The translations under genes were made by a program, and so were the position numbers. Shown here piece by piece: positions 4,401-36,666 of a stretch of DNA of 64,000 bases (position 1 is its first letter; every line of letters starts with the position of its first letter). The notes under the pieces are model-generated. The model saw only the letters and a list, made by a program, of their open reading frames with translations, had not been told where the DNA came from and made no database searches. The stretch comes from Candidatus Parcubacteria bacterium (lineage in GTDB: Bacteria; Patescibacteriota; Patescibacteriia; Patescibacteriales; UBA12075): assembly GCA_002869165.1 (NCBI GenBank), contig PKTK01000013.1, positions 50,124 through 114,123 of the forward strand. The letters are read 5' to 3'.

Positions 4401-4627
4401 TTAGTGTGACATTTTTGTCATTCCCGGCCGGAGCGAAGCGAAGGGGAAGGGAATCCTAGGGGTGCTAGTAAAAATATCAATAAAGAACAAAAAGTAATTA
4501 AGAGATAAGAAATGTTTTATATTAGTATTTTTATTCCTAGCTCTTGCCCCTAGATTCCCTTCCCCTTCGCCATTTGCTCGCTTCGCTTGCAAGGCTTCGG
4601 CCGGGAATGACAAAAATGTCACACTAA
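4401..4627. mobile_element. MITE-like palindromic element (family A): roughly 65-80-bp inverted arms around an AT-rich core
   Basis: The left arm is TTAGTGTGACATTTTTGTCATTCCCGGCCGGAGCGAAGCGAAGGGGAAGGGAATCCTAGGGG. The right arm is its imperfect reverse complement, ending GGCCGGGAATGACAAAAATGTCACACTAA. It has no coding capacity. Confidence 0.65.
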
Positions 4628-7668: not shown

Positions 7669-8130
7669 TTATGTTTTTTGTCTATCATTTTTGATAGACA
7701 CAAATAGAAAAATAATCACTCCACAAACTATCATTGTATCCGCCACATTAAAAACCGTAAAATATTTCAAATCTAAATAATCTACCACATAACCATACTC
7801 CAACCTATCATAAAGATTGCTAATTGCTCCTGCAAAAACACATAAAAGAAGTGAGGATTCTAATATTTTTCTTTCTTTGATCAATTTATAAATAAAATAC
7901 AAAAGTGTTAACAGGATTAACAATATTAATATAAGTAAAAAATTGCCTGACAAAGGAATGGAAAAAGCAATAAAATAGTTTTTTACAAAATTAAACTTAA
8001 AAAAATCAGATACTAGATTAATTTCTTTGCCATCTAGACCCAAGGCCAAATATTTTAAATACCGATCTAAAACAAACAAAAAAACAGCTACTAATAAGAT
8101 ATAAGCTGTTTTTTTTATATGTAAAAACAT
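7669..8130 (-). CDS. lspA: Lipoprotein signal peptidase II
   Basis: Contains NLYDRLEYGYVVDYLD and FNVADTMIVCGVIIF. I placed the start at the ATG at 8130 (MFLHIKK...) because the longer tracked ORF runs into the dksA-like gene. Confidence 0.8.
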   Translation of the reverse strand: MFLHIKKTAYILLVAVFLFVLDRYLKYLALGLDGKEINLVSDFFKFNFVKNYFIAFSIPLSGNFLLILILLILLTLLYFIYKLIKERKILESSLLLCVFAGAISNLYDRLEYGYVVDYLDLKYFTVFNVADTMIVCGVIIFLFVSIKNDRQKT

Positions 8131-8134
8131 TTTT

Positions 8135-8524
8135 TTATACTTGGCTTTGCAATTTTGTTTTACAGGCGATACAAGCAGAAGCAACCGGACGCGCTTGCAT
8201 ACGTTTTTTAGAAATAGGCTCTTTGCAGTATTTACAAATACCGTATTCACCTTTTTCAATTCTATCAAGAGCTGAATCAATATCTCTTAATGTTCCTTCT
8301 AACACCTTGTCAGTGGCAAGATTGGTGGTATATTCACCAATTTCCTGGGCATTTTCATCAGATTTATCACCATATTCAGGAAATTTAACTTTTTTCTTTG
8401 CTTCACCATCTTCACTTGTATCTACAATATCTTCCAAATCTTCTAAAATTTGTTTTTTTCTATCTAGAAGCTCTTCCTTAATTTTTTTGATATCTTCTTT
8501 ATTTAATACATCTGTATTTGTCAT
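8135..8524 (-). CDS. DksA/TraR-family C4 zinc-finger protein
   Basis: An acidic coiled-coil N-terminus is followed by CKYCKEPISKKRMQARPVASACIACK (CxxC-N17-CxxC). Confidence 0.75.
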   Translation of the reverse strand: MTNTDVLNKEDIKKIKEELLDRKKQILEDLEDIVDTSEDGEAKKKVKFPEYGDKSDENAQEIGEYTTNLATDKVLEGTLRDIDSALDRIEKGEYGICKYCKEPISKKRMQARPVASACIACKTKLQSQV

Positions 8525-9092
8525 ATTTTTATTTTTTTAAATAAATAAAATCAGGCCTTCCATTGTCTGAAAGTAATTATATTATATGTCAAAACCTAAT
8601 ATTTGGCAAGATAGTCAATATTTTAGGTATTATAAAAGGGCCCATTAGGCCTCCGTAATTTTTATATTATATATGAGTCCTTTAAATGAGCCCTACCTCT
8701 AAAAAATTGTTATAATATCGCTTTTTATAGCAATATCTATAAATCCCTTTTTCAGAGCTCATTTGACTATTCAACTTCTAGTCAATATTTTTTACCAATC
8801 TAGTGGTTTTTTTCAGAAATTTTTTTGTTTTTTTTATTTTCCAGAAAAAACCTTTGTTTTGTTTTTGTTTTTGATCTTTTTAAAGATTTGTATAAATTGT
8901 GTTGAATCCAATTTTACCGATCAGTAAAAAACAGAAAATTATATCAAATTTTTTGATATACTTTTCTTAATTGTGCAAAGAACATTTAACTATTATTACT
9001 ATACCATATAAATACGACTCGGTCAATCATATATTATCATTTTTTTTATACTAAAGTAAGGCAAAAATATGAACACATTTTTTATACACAAC

Positions 9093-9400
9093 TTAAGTCT
9101 ACACTAATGTAGACTTAAGTCTAAATCTTCAACAAACATATCCCCATTTTTTATGCTTTATCCACATATTAGTGTTGATAAGTCCACAATATTGTGGACT
9201 TAAATCTATTACTTATTTTAAACTGTTTAATTTTCCTCAATTTTCTTTCTATTTTAAGTCTACGCTAGCGTGGACTTAAATTAACTATTTTCTAAACAAC
9301 ATCCACGTTATATCATTAATACATTAATAAAAGGAATTGAAAGATAAAAAAACCATTATAAAATATACCCCAACTTAAGTCTATAATAGCGTGGACTTAA
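9093..9400. repeat. Cluster of four 26-bp palindromes, consensus TTAAGTCYAC-N6-GTRGACTTAA
   Basis: Copies lie at 9093-9118 (perfect), 9178-9203, 9254-9279 and 9375-9400. A fifth copy is at 36543-36568. The spacing is irregular (85, 76 and 121 bp). Confidence 0.8.
9158..9166 (+). promoter_or_regulatory. Perfect DnaA-box consensus TTATCCACA
   Basis: This is an exact 9-mer. Nearby degenerate boxes include TTATACACA (9081-9089) and AGTCCACA/TGTGGACT inside palindrome 2. Function is unproven. Confidence 0.35.
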
Positions 9401-9413
9401 ATTTTGACTTTCT

Positions 9414-9439
9414 AGATTCCTGCTTCCATAGGAATGACA
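9414..9439. repeat. Family A short hairpin unit
   Basis: AGATTCCTGCTTCCATAGGAATGACA. Confidence 0.55.
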
Positions 9440-9484
9440 AAAAAAGGAGTAAGGAATAACAGAGGTAGAAGTATTGTTTTGTGA

Positions 9485-9552
9485 AGGCGGCCACTTGCAG
9501 TGACCTACTCTACCTCACGTTCAAGAGATTCCTCGTTTCACTCGGAATGACA
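9485..9552. repeat. Family A long-form unit
   Basis: GGCGGCCACTTGCAGTGACCTACTCTACCTCACGTTCAAGAGATTCCTCGTTTCACTCGGAATGACA is collinear with 52214-52281. Confidence 0.7.
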
Positions 9553-9617
9553 AAAAAATAAGGTCTGGACCGCCCAGTCATCTGACTGGGCAAGGATTCT
9601 TACATTATTAAGTGATA

Positions 9618-9666
9618 TTTGAGGTCTGGACCGGATTCGAAGAGGCGGAAGCCTCACACCCTCAAG
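9618..9666 (-). repeat. Direct copy of the tRNA-Cys 3' end, fused to a 19-nt arm shared with the tRNA-Lys locus
   Basis: Positions 9618-9641 are identical to 9791-9814 (tRNA-Cys T-loop to 3' end plus flank). Positions 9633-9660 are the reverse complement of GGTGTGAGGCTTCCGCCTCTTCGAATCC, also found at 37532-37559 and 37710-37737. A shorter 12-nt copy is at 9561-9572. Confidence 0.8.
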
Positions 9667-9738
9667 AATTTTAATATGATCTTAAAAAATACTGTTTTAA
9701 CATTGGCATCATTTTTTTATCTATTTTTACATCTCAGG

Positions 9739-9762
9739 CACCGGTTCGAACCGATCCAGACT
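9739..9762 (+). repeat. Inverted degenerate copy of the tRNA-Cys 3' half
   Basis: CACCGGTTCGAACCGATCCAGACT compares with the tRNA sense sequence CACCGGTTCGAATCCGGTCCAGACC. Confidence 0.65.
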
Positions 9763-9786
9763 AAAAAAAGAACCCCATCTGGGGTT
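9763..9786 (-). terminator. Intrinsic terminator after tRNA-Cys
   Basis: The minus-strand sense reads AACCCC-AGAT-GGGGTT followed by CTTTTTTT. Confidence 0.7.
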
Positions 9787-9794
9787 ATTTTTTG

Positions 9795-9866
9795 AGGTCT
9801 GGACCGGATTCGAACCGGTGAATAACGGTTTTGCAAACCGTGGCCTTACCACTTGGCGACCAGACC
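9795..9866 (-). tRNA. tRNA-Cys (anticodon GCA)
   Basis: The reverse complement reads GGTCTGG..ACGGT-TTGCAAA-ACCGT..CCGGTTCGAATCCGG..CCAGACC-T. The cloverleaf is consistent. CCA is not encoded. Confidence 0.85.
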
Positions 9867-10041
9867 AGTATATTTATTTCAAAAATTTTAAATAAAAAAT
9901 TTTGAAATTTTTAACTAATTTTACTTTATAAATAATATCAGAAAGATTGATAAAAGACAAGGTTTTGATATTTTTCCTAAAATTAAAAAGGGGTCAAAAT
10001 TTGCCCCTTTTTATTTTAAAATATTTAGCCGTTATTATATT

Positions 10042-10113
10042 TGTCATTCCTGTGAGGGTAGAGATCTCATAGCCTTCTTATTTTACGAGATTCCTGCCTC
10101 CACAGAAATGACA
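10042..10113. repeat. Family A inverted-arm element
   Basis: TGTCATTCCTGTGAGGGTAGAGATCTC ... GAGATTCCTGCCTCCACAGAAATGACA. Confidence 0.6.
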
Positions 10114-10151
10114 CGAGAATGGATAAAAATTATATTTTTAAGCTTATAATT

Positions 10152-10697
10152 TTATTGATTCAATATCTCAATAGTAGCGTACTGAACACAAAAATCTATA
10201 GCATTTTCATGTGACAACAACCATACATCTACTCTGTCAGTATAACGCTTATTCATTCTATCTCTTACGACAAACACTCTATCTCCAAAAAGTTCTGGAA
10301 TACGTACCTGGGTGCCAAATTTTAGAAAATTTGCAGCAATTGTGTATTCAATGCCATGTTCACAAACATTAAAACCATTAGCTGTAATACAAGGGCTGTC
10401 GTCAGTTTGGCCTGGCTCTGAATTATATGCGGTCATAACCACATTTTTAGTCCAAGCTATATCTGATTCCTCTTCTTCGGCTATCATATTTACTGCTGTA
10501 ATATTAGCTGAAACTTCTGATTTTTGGCTATTACTAGCAAATATTTTTAAATCTGTTTTAATCATCTCTTTCATATTAACACCCTCTTTACTAAAACCAG
10601 CGTATGGAAATAATAATAATTCCATAATCATAGCCATCATAACAAATGGAATAACTGGATTTGTGATAAAACTAGATTTTTGATTTAATGTTAGCAT
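10152..10697 (-). CDS. 3D-domain (DPBB/MltA-like) cell-wall protein with an N-terminal membrane anchor
   Basis: The C-terminal half reads AYNSEPGQTDDSPCITANG...IAANFLKFGTQVRIPELFGDRVFVVRDRMNKRYTDRVDVWL. This carries the 3D-domain aspartates. Confidence 0.65.
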   Translation of the reverse strand: MLTLNQKSSFITNPVIPFVMMAMIMELLLFPYAGFSKEGVNMKEMIKTDLKIFASNSQKSEVSANITAVNMIAEEEESDIAWTKNVVMTAYNSEPGQTDDSPCITANGFNVCEHGIEYTIAANFLKFGTQVRIPELFGDRVFVVRDRMNKRYTDRVDVWLLSHENAIDFCVQYATIEILNQ

Positions 10698-18433: not shown

Positions 18434-18566
18434 TGTCATTCCCGGCTGGAGTAGCGAGCGCTAGCAAGCTACGGAAGGGAAGGGAATCTACGTATTAAAG
18501 AATAGCAACGCGTAGATTCCCTTCTCTTCCGCCCTCGCCTTCGGCGGGCTACAGCCGGGAATGACA
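18434..18566. mobile_element. MITE-like palindromic element (family A)
   Basis: TGTCATTCCCGGCTGGAGTAGCGAGCG...GGAAGGGAAGGGAATCTACG / CGTAGATTCCCTTCTCTTCC...CAGCCGGGAATGACA. The termini and inner GGGAAGGGAATC motif match 4401-4627. Confidence 0.7.
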
Positions 18567-36542: not shown

Positions 36543-36568
36543 TTAAATCCACAATACTGTAGACTTAA
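36543..36568. repeat. Fifth copy of the 26-bp palindrome TTAARTCYAC-N6-GTRGACTTAA
   Basis: TTAAATCCAC-AATACT-GTAGACTTAA. It shares the extended flank TAATAGATTTAAGTC with copy 2 (9178-9203). Confidence 0.75.
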
Positions 36569-36578
36569 ATCTATTATA

Positions 36579-36607
36579 ATTGTATCAAATATTAGTATTT
36601 TTGTCAA
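36579..36607 (-). promoter_or_regulatory. Sigma-70-type promoter for 36173-36514
   Basis: The minus-strand sense reads TTGACA (36607-36602), a 17-nt spacer, then TACAAT (36584-36579). The palindrome starts about 4 nt after the predicted transcription start. Confidence 0.55.
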
Positions 36608-36625
36608 TGTGCATAACTTAAATAA

Positions 36626-36654
36626 TTGACATATTTTAAATTATTTATTATAGT
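36626..36654 (+). promoter_or_regulatory. Divergent sigma-70-type promoter for 36667-36909
   Basis: TTGACA (36626-36631), a 17-nt spacer, then TATAGT (36649-36654). The TTG start lies 12 nt downstream, so the mRNA is nearly leaderless. Confidence 0.5.
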
Positions 36655-36666
36655 ATTTACAATAAC

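Follow-up and report, generated by a model that had tools for sequence, protein, structure and literature searches.

Palindromic sites and DnaA boxes ahead of a conserved small RNA gene as a putative regulatory region in Patescibacteria

Patescibacteria (the candidate phyla radiation, CPR) make up a large and mostly uncultured share of the bacteria, with tiny genomes, very few recognisable regulators and almost nothing known about gene control. One stretch of 64,000 nucleotides from a Candidatus Parcubacteria bacterium, referred to here as the window, raises the question of what a seemingly blank region of such a genome holds. No open reading frame (ORF) of 60 aa or more lies between positions 8540 and 10152, as was stated in a preliminary description made from the letters alone; the longest is 58 aa. 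The same description located four copies of a 26-bp palindrome (PAL) at 9093, 9178, 9254 and 9375, an exact DnaA box between the first two of them and a T-rich tract at 8815-8880, all of which are present, and it offered three readings of the region: a replication-related locus, a multi-site regulator landing pad, or a set of small RNA (sRNA) hairpins. The landing pad is the reading that the evidence supports. The gap is most likely a control region, conserved across many Patescibacteria, and not a replication origin; as a whole, the model in which PAL operators and DnaA boxes would control the promoter of a conserved sRNA is given a probability of about 0.6, judged from sequence comparison. 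An 'ORF-free gap' in such genomes can thus be densely functional.

Table 1. Positions of the features discussed, in window coordinates
Feature	Position	Strand	Details
lspA	7669-8280	minus	gene just left of the gap
dksA/traR-type zinc-finger gene	8135-8524	minus	Pfam PF01258, NCBIfam DksA-like/yteA
Separate promoter of the dksA/traR-like gene	8581-8609	minus	TTGCCA, 17 nt, TATAAT; 11/12 matches
Structured non-coding RNA, ~360 nt	8632-8991	minus	alignments, covariation; ends inferred from promoter and terminator
Putative sRNA promoter, sigma-70-type	8998-9026	minus	-35 TTGACC (9026-9021), 17-nt spacer, TG-extended -10 TATAGT (9003-8998)
Degenerate copy GCCTTACTTTAGTA of the conserved GCTAATATTAG(T/C)A element	9049-9062	minus	between last PAL and promoter
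Near DnaA box adjoining PAL1	9082-9090	minus	TTATACACA, = TGTGTATAA on minus strand
PAL1, putative operator, promoter-proximal	9093-9118	.	TTAAGTCTAC-ACTAAT-GTAGACTTAA, 26 bp, 0 mismatches
Degenerate second DnaA box, weak	9138-9146	minus	ATATCCCCA, = TGGGGATAT on minus strand; 20 bp start-to-start from exact box
Exact DnaA box	9158-9166	minus	TGTGGATAA on minus strand, oriented to sRNA promoter
PAL2, palindrome	9178-9203	.	1 mismatch; with PAL1 flanks DnaA boxes
PAL3, palindrome	9254-9279	.	0 mismatches
PAL4, palindrome	9375-9400	.	1 mismatch
Duplicated tRNA-Cys 3'-end fragments (two)	9561-9641	minus	24 nt at 9618-9641, 12 nt at 9561-9572
tRNA-Cys(GCA)	9794-9866	minus	conserved neighbour upstream of palindrome module
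PAL5, palindrome in divergent promoter region	36543-36568	.	1 mismatch

Genes and a structured RNA in the gap

The gap had been taken to be empty of genes and to receive converging genes from its two sides, neither of which holds. It contains the tRNA-Cys(GCA) gene and a conserved RNA gene, both on the minus strand (Table 1), and the dksA/traR-like gene and lspA at its left edge are minus-strand genes like those to the right. Genes lie on this strand continuously from 21.3 kb to 7.67 kb, through the palindrome module, and the local strand switch falls at about 7.65 kb, not at the gap. When the gap was compared across relatives, the synteny of the PAL and box module, the RNA, the tRNA-Cys and the dksA-like gene proved to be conserved. 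The tRNA-Cys, which is followed by a bidirectional hairpin terminator (9771-9786), precedes PAL in 11 of the 13 syntenic loci, and about two dozen loci show this order when all are counted, while the dksA/traR-like gene, syntenic in 13 loci, is the conserved neighbour downstream of the sRNA and keeps its separate promoter in relatives, after the sRNA terminator, as CTTGCAAAAAAGC...TATAtT. The duplicated tRNA-Cys fragments are scars that displace the tRNA by some 370 nt from the palindromes; similar fragments occur at loci L027, L052, L075, L085, L100 and L120, and one further 173-bp unit is found there in a second assembly of the same organism. The palindrome module sits on the chromosomal side of these scars and stays syntenic with housekeeping genes. 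Within the window, Rfam at the gathering threshold returned tRNAs only, and ARAGORN found no tmRNA.

Copies of the sRNA were found by nhmmer at 32 loci including the window. Its putative promoter has 10 of 12 matches and the TG, aligning with a TTGACTT...TGGTATAtT block that is conserved across loci. The fold comprises a hairpin at the 5' end, a multi-branch domain whose closing helix is 8930-8922/8797-8789, a long hairpin (8852-8841/8816-8805), a helix (8758-8750/8705-8697) and, at the 3' end, a compound terminator stem (8694-8686/8645-8637) with a T-run behind it. An invariant single-stranded AAACAAAAACAAA lies at about 8871-8859, and the T-rich tract is the antisense of this motif. RNAalifold gave 45 pairs for the alignment, 37 of them compensatory, with 90.8% of cells paired against 79.3% in shuffles; the covariation score of 0.458, compared with 0.241 in shuffles, was reached by 0 of 500 shuffles, slid controls scored 0.09-0.22, and the single-sequence fold has a z of -7.7.

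Similarity in the RNA region extends over several frames and both strands, which places the conservation at the nucleotide level, and the indels are not multiples of three; a protein-coding role was rejected on these grounds, and no conserved small ORF was found between the palindromes and dksA. Having what appear to be its own promoter and terminator, together with intergenic conservation and covariation beyond controls, the region is best described as a putative structured small RNA gene. This ~360-nt RNA gene is previously undescribed. None of the 4227 Rfam families matches it: the gap and 8 homologous loci, searched with relaxed E-value cut-offs too, gave nothing beyond tRNAs and isolated chance hits, and in the literature nothing was found on the PAL motif, the ~360-nt RNA or CPR DnaA-box modules. 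The earlier suggestion of sRNA hairpins therefore fails for the palindromes, whose stems do not covary, and comes near the truth by accident, given the structured sRNA gene that lies under the T-rich tract.

Replication and the position of the module

DnaA boxes and repeated elements in AT-rich DNA beside a promoter could indicate a chromosomal oriC, and the boxes do form a cluster with conserved positions; alternatively, the gap could represent an integrated element's origin or iterons, with insertion at the tRNA-Cys, a tRNA whose past use by integrative elements is evident from its 3'-end duplications. An origin of either kind is nevertheless extremely improbable. In plus-strand terms, GC3 skew is -0.236 (plus-strand genes) and -0.282 (minus-strand genes) to the left of the locus, and -0.250 and -0.235, respectively, to its right. 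It is about -0.24 on both sides and for both gene orientations, and cumulative skew falls monotonically through 9 kb without a switch at the locus. Skew and strand bias, by which the preliminary description had proposed to place origin and terminus, thus give no change of sign here in the window, where the genes are co-directional throughout the module. The same genomes have such arrays at their trx and HTH loci, and the repeats are inverted-repeat dyads of irregular spacing (76-121 bp in the gap) and so differ from direct iterons. The window's ORF map and the 20-kb context contain no rep, dnaA or dnaN gene, in agreement with the earlier remark that dnaA and dnaN are not nearby. The synteny with housekeeping genes and the position on the chromosomal side of the tRNA scars also speak against an origin.

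A terminus, towards which the preliminary description had leaned, fails the same test, and fork-trap (Ter) sites were rejected because GC3 skew is uniform and the palindromes are distributed with promoters. A single-copy oriC was rejected because the genes are co-directional and because individual assemblies have the arrays at several loci, accompanied by DnaA boxes where trxB is the neighbour. A plasmid or phage iteron origin was likewise rejected, on the irregular dyads, the gap free of ORFs of at least 60 aa, and the housekeeping flanks; among the viral contigs scanned only 2 carry the palindrome, which is therefore not a phage motif.

The palindromes as operators and their candidate binding protein

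With mismatches counted against the consensus TTAAGTCYAC-N6-GTRGACTTAA, five palindromes are found in the 64 kb where shuffles of the window predict 0, the preliminary description having missed the fifth. Its account of the first copy as a perfect palindrome is correct for the 10-nt arms, which are perfectly complementary, and incorrect for the asymmetric 6-nt centre, ACTAAT. PAL1 aligns with the invariant last palindrome in the 13 syntenic loci and forms with PAL2 a PAL-box-box-PAL sandwich that is conserved in relatives; a third, upstream palindrome like PAL3 is also present in L004, L027, L032, L039 and L041. On the minus strand, the TAGACT half of PAL4 doubles as the -35 of a sequence resembling a promoter (9383 to 9355), a match that may be due to chance. 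At PAL5, the transcript from a minus-strand promoter (36607 to 36579), which would cover a 113-aa ORF (ATG 36514), would include the palindrome at about +4 to +29, and the plus strand continues after the palindrome with AATATTAGTA (36586-36597), a TGTGCATAA near-box (36608-36616) and a promoter TTGACA-17-TATAGT (36626-36654).

Beyond the window, PAL was found in more than 118 loci of at least 83 assemblies, nearly all from Patescibacteria/Falkowbacteria/Parcubacteria, in arrays of 2 to 11; these genome-scan counts, like those of the neighbours, come from a sample and are lower bounds. Among the loci listed, the neighbours are HTH_17 (at least 36), ECF sigma (at least 32), trxB (at least 24), trxA (at least 18) and the set of a 181-aa protein, tRNA-Cys and the dksA-like gene (at least 20 and at least 13), and an anti-sigma-like gene, a bactofilin and a methyltransferase recur as well. 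The arrays lie where a small HTH_17 gene diverges from an ECF sigma/anti-sigma pair, at trxA-trxB, and between tRNA-Cys and the dksA-like gene. At least 13 assemblies carry them at both HTH and sRNA loci, and at least 5 at HTH, sRNA and trx loci. The wider search that the preliminary description had recommended therefore reveals intergenic recurrence beside a consistent gene set, the pattern of a regulon, and a link to promoters. The side of the promoter on which PAL lies is not uniform: it is the downstream side for HTH loci and PAL5 and the upstream side for the sRNA and the anti-sigma-like gene; PAL was not seen within an over-long -35/-10 spacer in the manner of MerR.

The information profile of PAL is symmetric over 30 bp. 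Its only variable arm position, Y/R, takes the combinations TA (33), TG (25), CA (19) and CG (13) in the HTH class, which equal the product of the marginals, and the C..A combination, which RNA cannot pair, shows no depletion on the transcribed strand. A dyad whose half-sites vary independently in this way fits a DNA site for a dimer and not an RNA hairpin. The palindromes do have 10-bp stems and are transcribable 5 nt past tRNA-Cys, 2-10 nt past the stop codon of trxA and within the 5' leader of HTH, where they might serve as terminators, as processing or stabiliser hairpins of the tRNA-Cys or trxA transcripts, or as REP-like elements. Such a role at the RNA level is very improbable when the variable stem position shows no covariation, C..A being as frequent as independence predicts, when the stem sequence itself is conserved across classes beyond pairing, and when the palindromes are neither followed by a T-run nor found among terminator-like sites. 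With no compensatory changes and no T-run, intrinsic terminators and REP-like hairpins were rejected as candidates, as were NrdR, CIRCE, CtrA, parS and LexA sites, which differ in half-site sequence and spacing and whose usual target genes are not found as neighbours.

If the palindromes are operators, the most constant of their neighbours may also encode their binding protein. In a sample of 80 metagenome loci that were fetched by HTH_17 homology alone, the palindrome not being consulted, PAL lies within -330 to +60 of the HTH_17 gene in 68 of 74, while in another 4 the arrays lie 400-650 nt upstream; in 47/47 the sigma gene is oriented divergently from HTH_17. The association of 72 out of 74 HTH_17 loci with upstream arrays points to this protein, of a MerR-superfamily fold, as the likely binder of PAL, a DNA-binding gene being linked to the sites in the sense of linkage only. 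At HTH loci a promoter TTGCAA-17-AAAAAT stands ahead of the array, the last PAL of which ends 4-10 nt before the ATG, in what appears to be the geometry of autorepression, an arrangement that PAL5 shares. A model of HTH_17 (pLDDT 83) has a winged HTH and a short helical tail. Its nearest solved folds in Foldseek are CbpM, Xis, BldC, GlnR-DNA, RacA-DNA and MtaN, all weaker than E = 0.001 and, with a best E of 0.018, matches to the MerR-like or excisionase-like class only; the HTH_17 profile had no significant match among PDB sequences (E > 0.06). An 8-6-8 dyad is within the size range of MerR-type operators. On the 64-kb window, tblastn found no match to HTH_17, ECF sigma, trxA, trxB, the anti-sigma-like protein, bactofilin, methyltransferase or RNase HII. 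The regulator and most of the regulon therefore lie outside the 64 kb, and the pairing with PAL is assumed here from relatives.

HTH_17 could also be a target itself, the most constant one of a different regulator, together with the sigma/anti-sigma cassette. The figure of 72/74 describes linkage and not binding, and HTH_17 has no cysteine and no evident sensor domain, although the regulon, with trxA/trxB and ECF sigma, has the look of a redox or stress response. A different binder is nonetheless unlikely: the genes of autoregulated repressors are as a rule preceded by their own operator array, the arrangement seen at HTH_17, whose fold is DNA-binding and of the right class, and no other DNA-binding gene recurs beside PAL among the loci listed.

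DnaA boxes and the proposed control of the small RNA

The box TTATCCACA at 9158-9166 is the sole exact DnaA box in the 64 kb, and the near-box reported beside PAL1 was also found. Boxes with at most one mismatch number 15 in the window against 20 expected, which is not above chance, and the significance of the exact box comes from comparison with other genomes only, not from window statistics. In that comparison it belongs to what is conserved in the module, and the preliminary description was right to single it out. The density of exact boxes is 0.90 per kb up to 200 nt from PAL and 0.031 per kb elsewhere, a 29-fold difference; the most enriched 8-mers near PAL, TGTGGATA and GTGGATAA, are each enriched about 27-fold. 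Near PAL, CTAATATT, which goes with the conserved element between the last PAL and the promoter (Table 1), is enriched 8-fold. Exact boxes are present at 24/26 sRNA loci and boxes with at most one mismatch at 23/24 trxB loci, while none of 36 HTH loci has any. Two exact boxes between two PALs, found at 14 loci, are co-oriented in all of them, with a box-box spacing of 20 bp in 12 and a gap of 9 nt to the next PAL in 13. The order at the tRNA-Cys locus is rigid (PAL, box, 11 nt, box, 9 nt, PAL), with a weak box inside the 11-nt spacer, and in about ten related loci shown, including L004, L027, L032, L036, L041, L095 and L107, a box with at most one mismatch (TGTGGAAAA or TGTGTATAA) follows the last PAL at the same place. 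The window differs in having one exact and two degenerate boxes where relatives carry two or three exact ones, the promoter-proximal box being degenerate and 19 nt, not 9, from PAL1. It keeps the 20-bp phase, so that the boxes form a phased, non-origin cluster beside a promoter.

The proposed mechanism takes the four palindromes to be operators on double-stranded DNA for a dimeric regulator conserved in many Patescibacteria, most likely the small (~90 aa) winged-helix protein of the HTH_17/'excisionase' family within the MerR superfamily. Its gene would lie elsewhere in the genome, downstream of its own PAL array and divergent from the ECF sigma/anti-sigma pair. At this locus the putative operators flank two DnaA boxes in phase, a third box adjoining the last of them, and this module stands 65-90 bp upstream of the sigma-70 promoter of the ~360-nt sRNA, itself presumably transcribed on the minus strand toward the dksA-like gene and stopping at its own terminator. 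Given operators and DnaA boxes upstream of the sRNA promoter, the module most likely sets transcription of the sRNA and insulates it from tRNA-Cys read-through, responding to two putative inputs, the palindrome-binding regulator and the replication initiator DnaA as a transcription factor. We infer the binding of DnaA to the boxes, as well as the identity of the PAL-binding protein, the direction of regulation and the function of the RNA. At the sRNA locus, about 115 bp separate the centre of the nearest operator from the start site downstream of it, a long distance for direct repression or class I/II activation.

Regulation or titration is a more likely use of the boxes than initiation. A locus dedicated to DnaA control, in which the sandwich is mainly a chromosomal site of DnaA titration or re-charging, datA/DARS- or DBC-like, with the palindrome-binding protein as an accessory factor and the sRNA promoter incidental, would account for the rigid co-oriented architecture, the two-turn spacing of the box pair, the weak box in the 11-nt spacer, the strong enrichment of boxes and the position outside any skew switch. 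We consider this improbable. The module always faces a promoter (of the sRNA, trxB, the methyltransferase or the PAL5 gene) with its boxes oriented to the gene, which fits promoter control; palindromes occur without boxes at 36 HTH loci, and each site has merely 2-3 boxes. Further elaboration of promoter control is speculative, and rather unlikely in the following form: the sandwich would be a nucleoprotein switch that reads the state of DnaA and a CPR-specific MerR-like factor tied to the ECF sigma/anti-sigma module, and that couples replication or cell-cycle state to the thioredoxin system and the new ~360-nt RNA. The RNA would, for example, sequester a protein via its invariant A-rich tract, beside a DksA homologue that binds RNA polymerase. 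Were this true, the switch would be among the few global regulatory circuits defined in Patescibacteria.

The locus provides a sharply defined putative operator of 26-30 bp with a candidate cognate protein family, whose more than 2300 sequence clusters are all annotated 'hypothetical' or 'excisionase'. It also provides a small regulon, recurrent in the sampled assemblies, that includes thioredoxin/thioredoxin reductase and an ECF sigma/anti-sigma pair, and a new structured RNA family with strong covariation, with a rigid cassette of DnaA boxes and operators ahead of its promoter. If the link to DnaA is functional, this would be a compact case of replication-coupled gene control in genetically intractable organisms.

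Among known systems, HTH_17 resembles GlnR/TnrA, RacA, MtaN and BldC in the winged-HTH fold and short C-terminal helical tail of its model, and the small dimers of the MerR superfamily in measuring ~90 aa without a large sensor domain; it has no significant sequence or fold match to MerR-superfamily proteins, and its binding is that of a candidate. Operators of this superfamily are dyads, like the 8-6-8 bp of PAL extended to 26-30 bp, and PAL arrays also precede the regulator's gene, whereas the PAL sequence is unlike TnrA/GlnR sites (TGTNA-N7-TNACA) and MerR spacer operators, and PAL does not lie inside an over-long -35/-10 spacer. The ~360-nt RNA shares with sRNAs of 300-400 nt, such as CrcZ-type sponge RNAs and 6S-class regulators, an intergenic location, its own sigma-70 promoter and an intrinsic terminator, along with a multi-helix structure supported by covariation and an invariant single-stranded A-rich tract (AAnAAnAA-like). 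The likeness to CrcZ lies in the A-rich tract only, and the topology is unlike that of 6S, tmRNA, RNase P or SRP RNA. Origins of the oriC or iteron type likewise combine DnaA boxes with repeats and AT-rich DNA, but here there is no skew switch and no initiator gene, the arrays are not unique, the repeats are dyads and genes read through. Closer parallels are the B. subtilis DBCs, E. coli datA and DARS1/2, and the nrdAB and dnaA promoters, at which consensus boxes also occur outside the origin. DnaA-regulated promoters have co-oriented, phased boxes beside the sites of a second protein, upstream of the promoter, as is the case here with putative binding, and the association with thioredoxin reductase is reminiscent of the control of nucleotide reduction by DnaA. 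In contrast to the DBCs, datA and DARS, the boxes described here, 2-3 only, lie at a fixed distance between two 26-bp palindromes, in a cassette that recurs at the tRNA-Cys/sRNA locus across a whole candidate phylum.

The ORF-free gap and its surroundings

All four copies of TTAAGTCYAC-N6-GTRGACTTAA in the preliminary description (PAL1 to PAL4) are present in the window, which has a G+C content of ~33%; a scan adds a fifth copy (PAL5), and dinucleotide-preserving shuffles of the window gave 0 matches. The gap holding the first four (8540-10152) is indeed without long ORFs, the longest having 58 aa, but it is not empty, as tRNA-Cys lies inside it. Flanking genes were also said to converge on the gap, which is wrong because the dksA/traR-type gene and lspA to its left are on the minus strand as well, every gene between 21.3 and 7.67 kb pointing leftward through the gap. 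The mechanical lspA ORF (TTG start, 203 aa) shares ~145 nt with the dksA-like ORF, an ORF-listing artefact, since public gene calls give a 153-aa LspA starting 4 nt past the dksA stop codon.

Features of the gap region and of the fifth palindrome in window coordinates
Feature	Position	Strand	Remark
lspA, mechanical ORF	7669-8280	minus	left of gap
dksA/traR-type zinc-finger gene	8135-8524	minus	immediately left of gap
Second promoter, for dksA	8609-8581	minus	after sRNA terminator
sRNA terminator		minus	GC-rich, with T-run, 3' of sRNA body
sRNA body		minus	~360 nt conserved sequence, downstream of promoter
sRNA promoter, sigma-70	9026-9021, 9003-8998	minus	TTGACC, TG-extended TATAGT
GCTAATATTAG(T/C)A	9049-9062, 36586-36597		second palindromic element
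TGTGTATAA	9090-9082	minus	after PAL1
PAL1	9093
TGGGGATAT	9146-9138	minus	20 bp from TGTGGATAA
TGTGGATAA	9166-9158	minus	after PAL2
PAL2, PAL3, PAL4	9178, 9254, 9375
tRNA-Cys 3'-end duplicates	9618-9641, 9561-9572		24 nt, 12 nt
Inverted T-arm-like fragment	9722-9753
Terminator	9771-9786
tRNA-Cys(GCA)	9794-9866	minus	ARAGORN and Rfam agree
MITE/REP-like repeat	4416-4612, 9415-9439, 9526-9552, 10040-10113, 18434-18566, 43830, 44398, 52273
113-aa ORF	ATG 36514	minus	beside PAL5
PAL5	36543
PAL5 promoter	36607 to 36579		PAL5 at ~+4 to +29
~80-aa ORF	from 36667	plus	beside PAL5

In many relatives the first palindrome lies 5 nt past tRNA-Cys, whereas in the window ~370 nt intervene, containing a terminator, duplicates of the tRNA 3' end and dispersed-repeat ends. 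Similar tRNA-fragment scars precede palindromes in other genomes, and a second (ENA) assembly of the window organism has one extra 173-bp unit at window ~9815, a copy-number variation matching the spacing of the 24-nt repeats; given the shared scars and the extra unit, tRNA-Cys is apparently a hotspot used repeatedly for integration or recombination. Relative to the scars, the palindromes are on the chromosomal side. The dispersed MITE/REP-like repeat has the termini TGTCATTCC...GGAATGACA, and GGAATGACA occurs 10 times in the window where 0.45 would be expected; the gap itself contains three copies or ends, and similar 'gtcattcc...ggaatgac' hairpins are seen at four other Patescibacteria loci.

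Palindromes and DnaA boxes across genomes

When one genome per species was scanned, the matches listed covered more than 118 palindrome-bearing stretches; their 83 assemblies carry labels such as Patescibacteria, Falkowbacteria and Parcubacteria. They also included many bins labelled 'uncultured Gammaproteobacteria', with identical gene contexts. A separate scan of viral contigs gave only 2 matches. Arrays are intergenic and comprise 2-11 sites at favoured spacings of ~46, 62-66 and 76-77 bp, and the information profile is symmetric across ~30 bp (A-N-TTAAGTCYACA-N4-TGTRGACTTAA-N-T). The palindromes had been proposed as sRNA hairpins, in which case selection on an RNA stem would couple the two arms. 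The opposite is found: at the sole variable arm position, with each site read in the direction of its downstream gene, the combinations T..A (33), T..G (25), C..A (19) and C..G (13) are the exact product of the marginals, and C..A, unpairable in RNA, is not avoided. Such independence is expected if a dimeric protein binds the DNA and tolerates degeneracy at one position of its half-site, and the palindrome, a conserved Patescibacteria motif, is best read as acting as DNA, not RNA.

The exact DnaA box TTATCCACA at 9158-9166 is the only one in the 64 kb, and boxes with one mismatch are not over-represented there (15 found, 20 expected). In the fetched loci, by comparison, TGTGGATA and GTGGATAA are the most enriched 8-mers up to 160 nt from palindromes (each ~27-fold), and the density of exact DnaA 9-mers is 0.90 per kb up to 200 nt from a palindrome and 0.031 per kb in the remaining sequence. 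The order at tRNA-Cys loci is nearly invariant: palindrome, 12-16 nt, TGTGGATAA, an 11-nt spacer that is itself a weak box, TGTGGATAA, 9 nt, palindrome, often followed by a third box (TGTGGAAAA or TGTGTATAA), ~35 nt, GCTAATATTAG, ~25 nt and the promoter. At 14 loci with two exact boxes between two palindromes, the boxes are co-oriented in 14/14 and 20 bp apart in 12/14, with a gap of 9 nt before the following palindrome in 13/14. The window repeats this order of parts on its minus strand, and thus both the exact box and the near-box noticed earlier are conserved elements; on this arrangement the window's DnaA box is evidently no accident. Boxes accompany palindromes at 24 of 26 sRNA loci (exact) and 23 of 24 trxB loci (at most one mismatch) and at none of 36 HTH loci, and the two are therefore separable inputs. 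The second conserved palindromic element, GCTAATATTAG(T/C)A, is found at many other loci; it follows the last palindrome at a distance of 12-40 nt, and precedes the promoter, at PAL5 and at the sRNA, trxB and methyltransferase loci.

An origin with iterons, or a terminus, had been considered for the gap. GC3 skew in plus-strand terms is, for plus- and minus-strand genes respectively, -0.236 and -0.282 to the left of 7.65 kb, with -0.250 and -0.235 to its right, and therefore shows no replication-associated sign change near the locus; cumulative GC skew over the window simply falls through it. Neither rep, dnaA nor dnaN was found nearby in the window ORF map and 20-kb context. Together with the multi-locus spread, dyads that are not iterons and read-through gene orientation, the uniform skew rejects both readings.

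A structured RNA under the T-rich tract

An alignment of the 500-650 nt from the last palindrome to dksA at 13 syntenic loci contains a conserved body between a promoter and a terminator. Its similarity extends over several frames and both strands, and its indel lengths are not divisible by three, so the region is not coding. With nhmmer the element was found in 32 loci including the window, palindromes being present in every one, and RNAalifold on a 27-sequence alignment gave 45 pairs in 7 helices, with compensatory changes in 37/45. Paired cells amount to 90.8% against 79.3% in shuffles, and the covariation score of 0.458 (0.241 in shuffles) was equalled by 0/500 shuffles, slid registers giving 0.09-0.22. 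Two independent double changes, G-C to C-G in the group of loci L039/L054/L087 and G-C to A-U in locus L117, favour a long-range 3' helix over a simple terminator hairpin. Folded by itself, the window copy reaches -83.5 kcal/mol (z = -7.7) and reproduces these helices. The T-rich tract noticed at 8815-8880 is the antisense of an invariant single-stranded AAACAAAAACAAA motif plus a long hairpin (8852-8841/8816-8805), and is predicted to belong to a new structured RNA; no Rfam match was obtained at permissive thresholds or with homologues. Speculatively, the invariant A-rich tract may be a protein-binding or pairing platform.

Neighbouring genes, regulation and the candidate regulator

Clustering of the ORFs flanking arrays, followed by a Pfam scan, gave recurrent neighbours among the matches listed: a ~90-aa HTH_17/'excisionase-family' protein (at least 36 loci), a divergent ECF sigma factor (at least 32), trxB and trxA around the palindromes (at least 24 and 18), and the window's set of 181-aa protein, tRNA-Cys, palindromes and dksA-like gene (at least 20 and at least 13), besides bactofilin, methyltransferase and RNase HII; together these neighbours would make up a regulon. 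Arrays occur at both HTH and tRNA-Cys loci in at least 13 assemblies and also at trx in at least 5. Three assemblies have tRNA-Cys/sRNA and trxA-trxB loci, each with palindromes and DnaA boxes, ~15-20 kb apart on one contig (JAQVNC010000001.1, loci L100/L065; CAZGKM010000012.1, L117/L043; JBAZFW010000010.1, L052/L006). An anti-sigma-like DUF5667 membrane protein gene is preceded by one palindrome and then a textbook ECF promoter, TGTAAC-N16-CGTAT, conserved ~40-50 nt downstream of the palindrome at eight loci; this succession points to the DUF5667 promoter as a likely joint target of sigma autoregulation and the palindrome factor.

As a control for ascertainment bias, 80 metagenome loci were fetched by HTH_17 protein homology alone. 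Upstream DNA was sufficient in 74, of which 68 show one palindrome or more between -330 and +60 and a further 4 carry arrays at 400-650 nt upstream; elsewhere these loci contain almost no palindromes, and the ECF sigma gene is divergent in 47/47. No HTH_17, ECF sigma or trx gene was found in the 64-kb window, and we therefore infer from linkage and geometry, at somewhat better than even odds (roughly 0.55-0.6), that HTH_17 binds the palindrome. An exact TGTGGATAA box within the 3' end of the HTH_17 CDS, encoding the conserved C-terminal ...YVDKW at eight loci, may have arisen by chance or may serve a double purpose.

The multi-site regulator landing pad once proposed for the gap remains the best-supported picture, as a composite upstream control region in which MerR-like dimer operators, probably bound by HTH_17, would bracket a phased DnaA-box array; this region would control the sRNA promoter and might also stop tRNA-Cys read-through. 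At HTH loci the last palindrome ends 4-10 nt ahead of the HTH_17 ATG with the promoter upstream of the array, a geometry that, with that of PAL5, is predicted to be of the repression type. PAL5 (region 36543-36660) lies between two strong divergent sigma-70-like promoters (11/12 matches each) serving two small uncharacterised ORFs, both without a Pfam match. Operators ~-115 from the sRNA promoter are too distant to act by simple occlusion; looping, insulation or control by DnaA oligomers would be needed, the weakest step of the model. No prior description of the motif, the RNA or CPR DnaA-box modules was found in the literature searched.

The HTH_17 family comprises more than 2300 sequence clusters, every one annotated 'hypothetical' or 'excisionase family'. 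AlphaFold models it (pLDDT 83) as a winged HTH carrying a short helical tail and, none passing E = 0.001, the nearest solved folds are MerR-superfamily/excisionase-like DNA binders: CbpM, Xis, BldC, GlnR-DNA, RacA-DNA and MtaN.
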